Shown here piece after piece: positions 1,050 to 3,412 of a DNA stretch of 64,000 nucleotides. The first letter of the stretch is position 1, and the number at the start of each line of letters is the position of its first letter. This DNA is from Salinispira sp. (GTDB taxonomy: Bacteria > Spirochaetota > Spirochaetia > DSM-27196 > Salinispiraceae). A program made the translations under genes and the position numbers. The stretch covers positions 544,001 to 608,000 of the forward strand of contig OZ271918.1 in NCBI GenBank assembly GCA_965602015.1, written 5' to 3'. The notes under the pieces were generated by a model that was not told the origin of the DNA, ran no database searches, and worked only from the letters and a program-made list of their open reading frames with translations.

Positions 1050-2744
1050 TTAGGTAAGAACAACAGCGGTATGGACTTTGCCGGCCCGCTCGTGGCTGGC
1101 GGTAAGCATTAGTTCAGTTCCGCTCGGTGCCTTGATGACCCATTCCACACTCGCCCTATCCGGATAAAACTGTCCCTGAAACATGGTCCAGGGAGTAACC
1201 GCAGTATGGGAATATGAGCGGCCCTCAAGCTGTTCTCCGATAACCCGTTTCTTTCCCGAAAGCAGGGCAGCGCCCTCGGGAATATCAATTTCATAACAGA
1301 CGCCCCGGACGATTTTTTTCTCAATCGCCTGTTTGGATACATATGTGGGGAGCCAGCCGTTGTTTTGCACCGACATTTTCACAAGCCAGGAATCCTGGCC
1401 CGTCTGTTCCACCTCGGTCTTGAAAATCTCCAGGCAGGGGGAAATGGCGAGATGCCATACCAGCCAATCGGTAAACGGCGCAATTTCCGCCTCGAGGTAG
1501 GCGCCGGGGGGATTTCGCCAGCAATAAAGATAGTCCCATCCGCCGAGCTCCACGCTGCCTAGATCAGGATGCTCGAAGGGGTACCAGTCGATGTATCCCT
1601 TTCCGTCGAGTTTTTCATCGCTCCATTTTATCATCTTTATATCGTCTTCAATCGGATGATTGCGGTACCAGTCTATGTAGTGTTTCGGTTCAACCCCGGC
1701 CTGACGCTGGGGACTCCAAATTTCCACCGTCCAGGAAAACAGGCCCAGGTGGGAGAACAGCCATTCATCAAAACCGCCGGTAATAACCTGCTTGGGGTGA
1801 TAGCGAAAATCATGGTACACCGAGTACACCGGATAGCCGGTTATTTCTGTCGCCTTTTCACCGATCTCCTTGTATACCCACAGATCTTCAGGAGCAAAAT
1901 CATCATCAGGGTGGGTCTCGAAGGGTCGCAGGATGACTCCGCTCCAGGTATGAAAGGCGACGCCGCCGGTAATATTCCGGTGAGCAGTGATAAAATCAAC
2001 GGCAGCCCGCACTTCAGGTTCGGATCCGGGGTAGGGACCTGCGCCGATTTGTTCACCTTCGCCTCTCCAGTTCGCCGGAAAGTTTCTGTTGAAATCCAGG
2101 CCCTGTTTTTTCTTGGCCCAGTCGATTCTGATTCCGTCGAAATCCTTTACCCGGCCCTCACGGAGTACCCGGTAATACTGACCTCCGCTTTCCGCCGGAT
2201 CTCTTCTTACCATTAGTCGGGGGTCTGCTTCCGAGGTCTTCCACTGCCCGTCGGGATCGGGAATACGCATGGAAAGAATCCGGCCGTCACCGTCAACATC
2301 CCGGGCTTCAAGCCCTTCTGTGGGATCCTCGTCAAACGGCCAGGGGCGGGTTCCCGAACGAACCTCTTCGAGCCGGTCTGAGAGAATGAGCTCAGCACCG
2401 TCGGGGTTAAGCCGGGGACAAATATAAAACGCCCGGGTGTCCAAAACGCGGGTAATTTGGGGATCCTGGCCATATCTGCGAATCAGTTTGTTAATCGCGT
2501 ATAAGCAGGCCGAAGAGGGTGCGAGCTCCGTGGCATGAATATTTCCATCCACCCACATCGCCGGCTTGTCAGCCGCTGGCCCGGTCTTGCTGTTGGTTAT
2601 TTCTACGAGCGGAATACTGCGGCCCTCATGACTTGTACCTATTGAAACCAGAGTGCACAGCTGCGGATACTCAGACTCGAACTGCTTCAGGATTCCGGTG
2701 AGATCATCATAATTGTAGTAGCGGTCAAACTGCACGTCAGCCAT
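1050..2744 (-). CDS. M14-family zinc metallocarboxypeptidase
   Basis: Zn ligand motifs GNIHATE and AFHTWSG, plus LNPDG and DFNRNF. Start moved to ATG 2744, which follows a GGAGG RBS. Confidence 0.88.
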   Translation of the reverse strand: MADVQFDRYYNYDDLTGILKQFESEYPQLCTLVSIGTSHEGRSIPLVEITNSKTGPAADKPAMWVDGNIHATELAPSSACLYAINKLIRRYGQDPQITRVLDTRAFYICPRLNPDGAELILSDRLEEVRSGTRPWPFDEDPTEGLEARDVDGDGRILSMRIPDPDGQWKTSEADPRLMVRRDPAESGGQYYRVLREGRVKDFDGIRIDWAKKKQGLDFNRNFPANWRGEGEQIGAGPYPGSEPEVRAAVDFITAHRNITGGVAFHTWSGVILRPFETHPDDDFAPEDLWVYKEIGEKATEITGYPVYSVYHDFRYHPKQVITGGFDEWLFSHLGLFSWTVEIWSPQRQAGVEPKHYIDWYRNHPIEDDIKMIKWSDEKLDGKGYIDWYPFEHPDLGSVELGGWDYLYCWRNPPGAYLEAEIAPFTDWLVWHLAISPCLEIFKTEVEQTGQDSWLVKMSVQNNGWLPTYVSKQAIEKKIVRGVCYEIDIPEGAALLSGKKRVIGEQLEGRSYSHTAVTPWTMFQGQFYPDRASVEWVIKAPSGTELMLTASHERAGKVHTAVVLT

Positions 2745-2808
2745 GGAAGCCTCCTGGTATTTGCTATGAAAGTATACCATGAGACAATCCGGCTCAGCGA
2801 AAAGATTA

Positions 2809-3266
2809 GCTTCAAGTCCAGATGCTTATCGATAAAAAAAAGCTTCCAGATCCTTATAGATCTGAAAGCTTTTTTTGATGCGGCGAACTGGACTTGCCCT
2901 CCGGTCGTCGCCATCGTGGCTCCTCCCTCCGGGCCGCCTCCGTCGCTAAATCGCCGTCCAGGCGATTTGCGCTCGCAGCGCTCGCGCCGCTCCTCCGTTT
3001 CAAGTCCAGCTATTTGGCCATAAAAAAAGCTCGTCGATCTAAAGATCAACGAGCTTTCTTTGCGGCGAACTGGACTTGGTCTACAGCCTTCGGCGTCCTG
3101 CCTCAGGCTTCCGACCCGTCTCAGCTCCTGATTTGCCATCCCGGCAATTCGCGCTCCAGGTGTTCGCGCCGGAGCTTCGCTTCAAGTCCAGATGCTTATC
3201 GATAAAAAAAAGCTTCCAGATCCTTATAGATCTGAAAGCTTTTTTTGATGCGGCGAACTGGACTTG
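2809..3266 (-). repeat. tRNA-linked repeat array: 3 copies of [tRNA-Leu 3' 18 nt + terminator + CTGGACTTGAA] separated by two 102-bp spacers
   Basis: 2809-2896 and 3179-3266 are identical over 88 bp; a variant copy lies at 2999-3078. Each contains tgcggcgaactggacttg, the reverse complement of the tRNA 3' end. Confidence 0.95.
3204..3246. terminator. Bidirectional intrinsic terminator directly after tRNA-Leu (copies at ~2834-2876 and variant ~3022-3061)
   Basis: A8-gcttccagatc-cttata-gatctgaaagc-T7 hairpin with A- and T-tracts on either side. Confidence 0.85.
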
Positions 3267-3332
3267 AACCAGCACGTCCTAACGGACACTAGCCCCTCAA
3301 GCTAGCGCGTCTACCAATTCCGCCACCGCCGC
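3249..3332 (-). tRNA. tRNA-Leu(GAG)
   Basis: Reverse complement GCGGCGGTGGCGGAATTGGTAGACGCGCTAGCTTGAGGGGCTAG...GGTTCAAGTCCAGTTCGCCGCA. Anticodon arm CTAGC-TTGAGGG-GCTAG, long variable arm, CCA not encoded. Confidence 0.97.
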
Positions 3333-3383
3333 AGGTAGACATTTTCGCGCACTGCCTAAAAGCCGCCGCGAAATGTAAGCGTG

Positions 3384-3412
3384 ATATTATCGAAGCATTG
3401 CGAACGTGTCAA
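3384..3412 (-). promoter_or_regulatory. sigma70-type promoter of tRNA-Leu
   Basis: TTGACA-N17-TAATAT on the minus strand, ~50 bp upstream of the tRNA. Confidence 0.7.

Follow-up and report, generated by a model that had tools for sequence, protein, structure and literature searches.

We analyzed a window of 64,000 nucleotides from a Salinispira sp. contig, in which two spacers of about 100 bp (2897-2998 and 3079-3180) had been singled out by a first-pass annotation as a candidate structured RNA. That annotation had missed their context: the spacers lie on the minus strand, downstream of tRNA-Leu(GAG), and the informative strand is this tRNA-sense minus strand, which corrects the earlier reading. 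On the minus strand, the tRNA is followed by a terminator-like hairpin (A), an inverted copy of tRNA positions 54-64, a first spacer (core a) and the last 18 nt of the tRNA. A second hairpin (B), a further inverted copy, the second spacer (core b) and the last 18 nt come next, and then hairpin A again and an inverted copy that runs into unrelated DNA. The features are, in this order:

3384-3412, minus strand: sigma-70-like promoter match upstream of the tRNA (10/12, consensus match only)
3247-3333, minus strand: tRNA-Leu(GAG), the intact target gene (tRNA prediction)
3249-3266, minus strand: last 18 nt of tRNA-Leu(GAG), C56 to the discriminator, repeated by the array
3204-3246, unstranded: terminator-like hairpin A, with A/T runs on either side
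3181-3191, minus strand: inverted arm 1, the exact reverse complement of tRNA positions 54-64
3079-3180, minus strand: core a (second spacer of the first-pass annotation), with G.A-closed hairpin A1, hairpin A2 and domain B
3130-3150, minus strand: hairpin A2 of core a, GGA loop
3079-3115, minus strand: domain B stem-loop of core a, GGA loop
3061-3078, minus strand: direct copy 1 of the tRNA 3' end, 18 nt, lacking T54-T55
3022-3061, unstranded: terminator-like hairpin B, unlike hairpin A in sequence
2999-3009, minus strand: inverted arm 2 (tRNA positions 54-64)
2897-2998, minus strand: core b (first spacer of the first-pass annotation), fold as in core a
2948-2968, minus strand: hairpin A2 of core b, GGA loop
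2897-2933, minus strand: domain B of core b, CGA loop
2879-2896, minus strand: direct copy 2 of the tRNA 3' end, 18 nt
2834-2876, unstranded: second copy of terminator-like hairpin A
2811-2821, minus strand: inverted arm 3, with no core behind it, last unit truncated

The array contains two complete units and, behind them, a third that is truncated. A unit spans 180-190 bp and comprises a tRNA 3' end, a terminator-like hairpin, the inverted T-loop copy, the core and, in direct orientation, a further copy of the tRNA 3' end. Blocks 2810-2896 and 3180-3266 are identical (0 differences in 87), and the array from 2867 to 3208 is reproduced with 0 differences in DNA contigs from one sample, which is possibly the source of the assembly itself.

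We re-measured the two spacers. Each is exactly 102 bp long, and their ungapped alignment has 64/102 identical positions, as previously counted by hand; base shuffles gave a mean of 31 and a maximum of 52 (n = 100,000). The reported changes between the stems at 2948-2968 and 3130-3150 (A-T to G-C, C-G to T-A, and one new mismatch) are all present, as are the 3-bp stem change from gcc/ggc to ggc/gcc and the change from ccc/ggg to gtc/gac at spacer positions 1-3/35-37. Compared with shuffles, the two spacers alone fold only modestly better (z -1.3 to -2.5). Folding them together with their flanks improves the score to between -2.5 and -4.2, because a 9-bp inverted pair closes each spacer. The spacer pair by itself is weak evidence for structure, and it is the alignment of the family that decides. 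The Rfam search proposed with the first-pass annotation returned tRNA as the sole family at the gathering threshold and no match for the spacers; over positions 2700-3400 at E<=10 there were 21 matches, with only tRNA near threshold.

A covariance model built from 11 copies was used to search genomes. The source genome (G000) contains 15 cores, 12 of which are located directly behind 9 of its 47 tRNA/tmRNA genes; the other three sit on fragments of tRNA-Leu(CAG), displaced to the distal end of a 51-kb integrase island. The model has matches in 33/60 relatives from the same order. At the best loci of these relatives, ARAGORN places a tRNA just upstream in 24/29, four loci are at contig edges, and in the remaining one the tRNA end is visible, having been missed by ARAGORN. 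A pattern scan of genome contigs yielded 84 loci, mostly in records titled as spirochaetes, with a tRNA within 700 nt in 67; five of the pattern hits (L043, L045, L067, L073 and L087) had no counterpart in the model search and were discarded as chance, and L078 was excluded since it overlaps L077. A second model has matches in 15/150 further Spirochaetota genomes, and a matching T-arm is found upstream in 10/11 of the loci inspected, the other one being partly masked. This model also detects 21 copies in a record titled Nitrospinota, 6 in an unclassified record, and matches 2/151 genomes in the phylum of a record titled Desulfatibia. Among 46 metagenome loci, a matching T-arm is found within 200 nt of 35, 8 belong to arrays, 2 lie at contig edges and the last is an array member just beyond the 200-nt cut-off; genes inside the unit were found in 0/46. 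Altogether, the pooled copy sets hold 174 distinct full-length copies.

Units are arranged in tandem, from one to 6-7 per locus, in arrays that carry mixed terminators. Their length is 178-230 bp in the arrays measured, and the distance from arm to direct copy is 102-107 nt in 57/77 units. Seventeen or more tRNA types carry units, in a patchy distribution. A terminator-like hairpin usually precedes the core, and some units have no terminator ahead of the arm. Three pattern scans of viral contigs gave 0, 0 and 4 matches, the four being chance, and we found no true copy in these contigs; BLAST searches gave no match in phages and two short chance matches only in plasmids. Our literature searches found no description of the family; Rudd 1999 may already describe the inverted arm.

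The core folds into a closing stem and two domains: domain A contains a G.A-closed hairpin (A1) and an 8-bp hairpin (A2), and domain B is a long stem with G.A loops. In a plain MAFFT alignment of the 11 copies, 19/34 base pairs change on both sides, a number reached by 0/500 shuffles, and RNAalifold agrees on 20 pairs. Among 101 non-redundant copies (under 90% identity), 25/34 pairs covary significantly (E<0.05) in a custom tree-aware test, which is modelled on R-scape and is not R-scape itself, and whose alignment was fitted to the model and is biased towards it. The selection on secondary structure postulated from the two spacers is thus borne out by the family: the structure is real and under selection. 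Five further column pairs alternate between Watson-Crick and G.A, unpaired columns on the minus strand correspond to tandem G.A, and G.T outnumbers A.C by 97 to 48 in the cores. The G.A/Watson-Crick alternation and the G.T excess together indicate that the tRNA-sense strand is the folded one. The folded nucleic acid may be RNA or single-stranded DNA. In 70 model-found copies, GGA is present in the A2 loop of 67 and the B loop of 49, the model itself favoring these loops; 47 copies have two GGA loops, 22 have one and 1 has none. The inner loops of hairpin A1 are GNNA-not-GNRA in 14 cases, GNRA in 4 and UUCG in 0, with related copies counted repeatedly. Loops of the GNNA-but-not-GNRA type fit stable DNA loops better.

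We investigated how the inverted arm relates to the tRNA in front of it. An intact T-arm is present upstream of 84 among the 116 distinct copies; a filter of 6 matching arm positions out of 10 is passed by 81 of these first units. In the 81 units, complementarity between arm and tRNA is 93-100% at every position from 54 to 62, drops to 63% by position 65 and reaches background by position 70. The direct copy matches the tRNA from position 56-57 to position 73 (86-99% identity per position over 57-73), and T54-T55 are absent from it (5-6% match). At six variable positions the arms of the 84 units match their own tRNA at 5.1/6 and other tRNAs at 2.8/6, in a test whose anchor was picked on the own tRNA and is slightly biased towards it. 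These units represent 50 distinct T-arm 12-mers. Where copy and tRNA disagree, the arm sides with the tRNA in 40/42 cases. As an exception, the arm at tRNA-Arg(TCT) of the source genome matches a variant tRNA piece between unit and gene; this locus (L002, G000:C1:970650-970800) contains, between the intact gene and its unit, a pseudo-tRNA-Arg 3' half whose T-stem differs and whose T-loop houses a hairpin module. In a predicted folding equilibrium of the precursor, the arm pairs with the T-arm of the tRNA at a probability of 0.99 and with the downstream copy at one of 0.001. Since some 50 T-arm sequences are tracked, which a site recognized by protein only would not need, pairing may be the simplest reason for the arm.

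These findings change the earlier picture of an unannotated RNA or single-stranded DNA family in part. A selected fold that has no Rfam match is retained, and a free-standing noncoding RNA family is not, as the spacers are the cores of a repeat that is bound to tRNA 3' ends and has its flanks copied from the local tRNA. In the reading that we propose, each spacer forms the folded core of a tRNA-linked repeat that carries no genes and is likely a small mobile element, predicted to enter the T-loop as a folded single strand; we give this reading a probability of roughly one half. The unit would leave as a single-stranded circle of ~185 nt, with its arm paired to the unit's own tRNA piece. The arm would then pair with the T-loop of a target, including T54-T55, which the unit itself does not carry, and a putative enzyme acting in trans would join the unit between approximately positions 55 and 58. 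Joining would restore the tRNA and push its old 3' end downstream, where it would persist as the direct copy. Such a restored gene, with a 3' piece displaced, marks integration at tRNA genes (PMC4383910). The terminator could shield the tRNA transcript from the antisense arm, and recombination between direct copies could grow or shrink arrays and swap core halves between units. As a second role, read-through RNA may bind CsrA via the GGA loops.

A precedent for the single-stranded step is the CTX phage, whose folded single-stranded attachment site is formed from two sites 90 bp apart (PMC4246890). This precedent, together with arm pairing as the simplest reason for the arm, leads us to favor a folded single-stranded intermediate. 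As in our units, the Xer-dependent attP(+) has two inverted target-like sites ~90-100 nt apart that could fold into a duplex site, and the phage inserts in tandem (PMC4246890). In contrast, the target of our units is the tRNA T-loop and not dif, they carry no genes, and their arm differs with each target. An element that exploits Xer in the CTX manner, with a dif target and XerC/XerD binding sites, was rejected, since tRNA T-loops are the targets here; the likeness is one of layout only.

We searched for an enzyme that could mobilize the units, with a negative outcome for every candidate. An integron integrase is present in 11/33 carrier and 11/27 non-carrier genomes, showing no association, and there is no replication-strand bias (4/10 carrier tRNAs are co-oriented with replication versus 21/37 others), which argues against integron attC sites or cassettes. 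A large serine recombinase occurs in 6/61 genomes and is absent from the source genome, as are reverse transcriptase and Y1 transposase. An IS110-family mobilizer was rejected, the nine copies in the source genome having unrelated ends and sites. In the DNA contigs searched, the search being confined to contigs, there was no circle or excision junction.

The main competitor, which we regard as possible and rather doubtful, is a small RNA kept by the host and made by read-through of the tRNA. It would soak up CsrA, a role suggested for E. coli RrA/B/F, and would have spread by local duplication and gene conversion, its arms being processing signals. GGA is found in at least one loop of 69/70 model-found copies, csrA is encoded in the source genome, and some units lack a terminator before the arm. 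This reading leaves unexplained that the arm is matched to the intact tRNA, T54-T55 included, and not to the downstream copy, which would be its pairing partner in the released RNA. It also fits poorly with the GGA missing from 21/70 B loops, the terminator-like hairpin usually lying ahead of the core, the patchy spread over 17 or more tRNA types, and A1 loops that are mostly of the type better suited to DNA. E. coli repeats speak on both sides: rrB is the most alike of the 14 that we tested, and RrB binds CsrA in vitro through GGA loops, yet 19/22 E. coli tRNA-linked repeats score <0.01 as CsrA binders (PMC8144298). The mobile-element and CsrA-binding roles can coexist. Ten RNA runs contained only 4-5% of the sequence words, and the one that was mapped held mainly tRNA of other organisms, so these runs have no bearing on transcription.

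A cis-acting antisense switch appears unlikely. Here, on read-through, the arm would invade the T-arm, and the tRNA precursor would decay or mature late. The arm matches the intact gene at positions 54-62, and the predicted preference for the T-arm over the downstream copy agrees with such a switch. It gives no reason, however, for the direct copy or for arrays of up to 6-7 units, in which distal arms have no adjacent intact tRNA, nor for the units found on displaced tRNA fragments at island ends.

We similarly disfavor, as improbable, the notion that the units are scars of genomic islands that integrate at the T-loop, with the core as a remnant of the attachment region after gene loss. A displaced 3' tRNA fragment is a hallmark of tDNA islands, which commonly use T-loop/junction sites (PMC4383910), and some cores do lie at island ends. 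Size is tightly held, however (102-107 nt in 57/77), and covariation is strong, unlike decay; a gene-bearing version between tRNA and arm was seen in 0/46 metagenome loci. At island ends, the tRNA fragment that goes with the cores is longer, beginning upstream of the T-arm, and the whole unit lies behind it; we conclude from this that another island displaced these units. Compared with tDNA islands (Islander), with which they share the restored tRNA and the displaced 3' fragment, our units have no integrase or cargo, are <250 bp, and carry an inverted arm that tracks the target. Finally, the first-pass annotation had named a match to a known REP/MITE family as something that would overturn its reading. 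A MITE with 9-bp terminal inverted repeats around a 102-bp spacer is most improbable, because, although a 9-bp inverted pair flanks each spacer in the window, the ends vary with the target tRNA (50 T-arm types), which refutes a classical MITE, no short target duplication is present, copies are confined to tRNA ends, and the IS110-family copies of the genome differ in ends and sites.

We compared cores between loci and genomes. Between genomes, the target has little influence on core identity, cores on the same tRNA being 0.63 identical and those on different tRNAs 0.61, and the nearest core sits on a different tRNA for 84/112 units. A tRNA-Pro(GGG) and a CAT-anticodon tRNA carry cores that are 89% identical, and in both units the arm matches the local tRNA. 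A tree was built from 79 cores, whose 102-nt length leaves it poorly resolved. Some signal of target class is preserved on it, with 49 changes of class compared with 57.8 in shuffles (0/500), the minimum being 16. A recent jump between tRNAs inside one genome was not seen, the highest identity there being 85%. Domain B of core a is identical at 38/41 positions to that of a unit at the same tRNA in the relative G002, and domain A differs, which points to swapped core halves and to old units, in part vertically inherited. Six family genomes differ in their occupancy of tRNA-Leu(GAG): there are 2, 1 and 3 cores in some, an arm without a core in another, and none in two. The locus with the coreless arm (L145, in G003) has a terminator and a tRNA-matched arm followed by a different sequence without a model match, either a remnant or another type of core. 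At tRNA-Leu(CAG), inspected by eye, G002 has two units between the tRNA and sequence resembling the island end, and in G000 the integrase island follows the tRNA directly. The arrangement of these two sequences fits insertion at the tRNA and would look identical after precise loss; the pattern of presence and absence can be explained by precise loss alone.

The claim that the family is new has to be qualified, as the E. coli tRNA-linked repeats (TLRs), a class already described, share its layout. TLRs, first known in 1978 and in 2021 still without a known function, form 22 units at 10 loci, each ending in 18-19 bp copied from the end of the gene upstream, according to PMC8144298. They include the tyrT repeats (RtT, RF00391) and rrA, rrB and rrF, and like our units they are gene-less and occur as one to several units behind a tRNA (or 5S) gene. 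Our copies lie directly downstream of tRNA in 12/15 cases in the source genome and at 24/29 loci of relatives, and the 3'-end copy in the window has 18 nt, compared with 18-19 bp in E. coli. We fetched five K-12 regions, and by eye the tyrT, proK, lysQ and argV repeats likewise show an inverted copy of the T-arm, which is imperfect, and a 3' stem-loop resembling ours. Their order is the same as in our units: inverted T-arm copy, G.A-closed hairpin, second hairpin and 3' stem-loop. A test for exact matches of at least 7 letters recovers the inverted arm only at lysQ, plus short proK matches at the terminator, and the word 'inverted' is absent from the main text of PMC8144298. In RtT, a covarying helix frames tandem GA (PMC8250186), and RtT as well as RrA/B/F were shown to be transcribed and processed into discrete RNA.

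The two groups also differ. Compared with E. coli TLRs, the core here is longer and a GGA loop is nearly always present, the direct copy begins at position 56-57 (58-59 in E. coli), and the family is centered on Spirochaetota, occupying 9/47 tRNA/tmRNA genes of the source genome. The RF00391 model has 0 matches in that genome at E<=10, and our family models reach at best E 0.08-0.8 on the K-12 loci, such that the models do not cross-detect. Local scores on the same strand exceed shuffles for 14/14 E. coli repeats in a crude test with inflated z; the similarity is modest and highest for rrB. Judged by sequence layout, the family works like a TLR and has the arrangement by which TLRs are recognized, and the resemblance is only suggestive of homology. 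It is conceivable, and we say so with considerable reserve, that TLRs from E. coli to spirochaetes represent one cross-phylum class of gene-less mobile units that would use a T-loop pairing guide, be retargeted by rewriting of the arm, be inserted by an enzyme, and give CsrA-binding RNAs via tRNA transcription.

Two further RNA systems are alike in parts. CsrB/RsmZ-type sponges have GGA motifs in hairpin loops, and CsrA binding by our units is a prediction only. TwoAYGGAY (RF01731) is a multicopy structure with two GGA-loop hairpins on a basal stem, for which CsrA binding and mobile-like spread have both been proposed; the portion of the source consulted describes no tRNA link (bioRxiv 10.64898/2026.09.22.753630). 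We rejected it as an identity for our family (PMC2864571): its model has 0 matches in the source genome at E<=10, and the strict AYGGAY motif occurs in only 16/70 A2 loops and 0 B loops.

The family is thus an unexplained known class, TLR-like, in a new form, and its spacers are a real, selected structure. It adds >170 distinct copies with clear covariation to the TLR question, together with one sharp rule, that the sequence of the inverted arm tracks positions 54-62 of the intact target tRNA. The long-standing TLR puzzle now yields testable predictions, namely a circular single strand with a set junction, insertion governed by pairing between arm and target, and loops that bind CsrA. If pairing sets the target, the units would constitute an integration system that is programmable and very small. 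Should the RNA bind CsrA, they would be sponge RNAs for a phylum in which csrB/csrC homologues have been reported missing (for Leptospira, in PMC8668096). If neither is true, they are an unannotated repeat family that deserves an Rfam model.

Several additional observations were made in these genomes. The island at tRNA-Leu(CAG) (G000:C1:3600300-3651300) is ~51 kb long and of lower GC; it encodes a tyrosine integrase adjoining the tRNA and another recombinase, and an att-like repeat is found inside it at ~3611800. At its far end (L001, G000:C1:3600100-3603050) lie two displaced tRNA-Leu(CAG) 3' halves that have gained hairpins in the variable arm and whose T-loop/terminator/arm section is reduced to a short hairpin, with both sides changed together. 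The nine IS110-family copies (G000:C1:237067 and eight other sites) are near-identical and have sub-terminal inverted repeats; at least six adjoin the same short repeat, and one directly follows a tRNA terminator. An integron integrase above the family cut-off is encoded at G000:C1:1742714-1743973, and in G047 (L151) one is found ~700 bp from a unit behind tRNA-Leu(CAG). The tRNA-Pro(CGG) array of G002 (L136) and L005 of the source genome contain hairpin modules in the middle of displaced acceptor-strand copies, and along the array units of two types take turns. A second hairpin module, whose purine-rich internal loop is conserved, is inserted into some of the units, follows the ends of certain tRNAs, and occurs at sites apart from tRNAs as well; in one place it replaces a T-loop, and in two it is nested within a module like itself. 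Its sites on G000:C1 are 1482812, 1617030, 2939792, 2939905, 2939632, 970757, 1925367, 1935956, 2188178 and 2191366.
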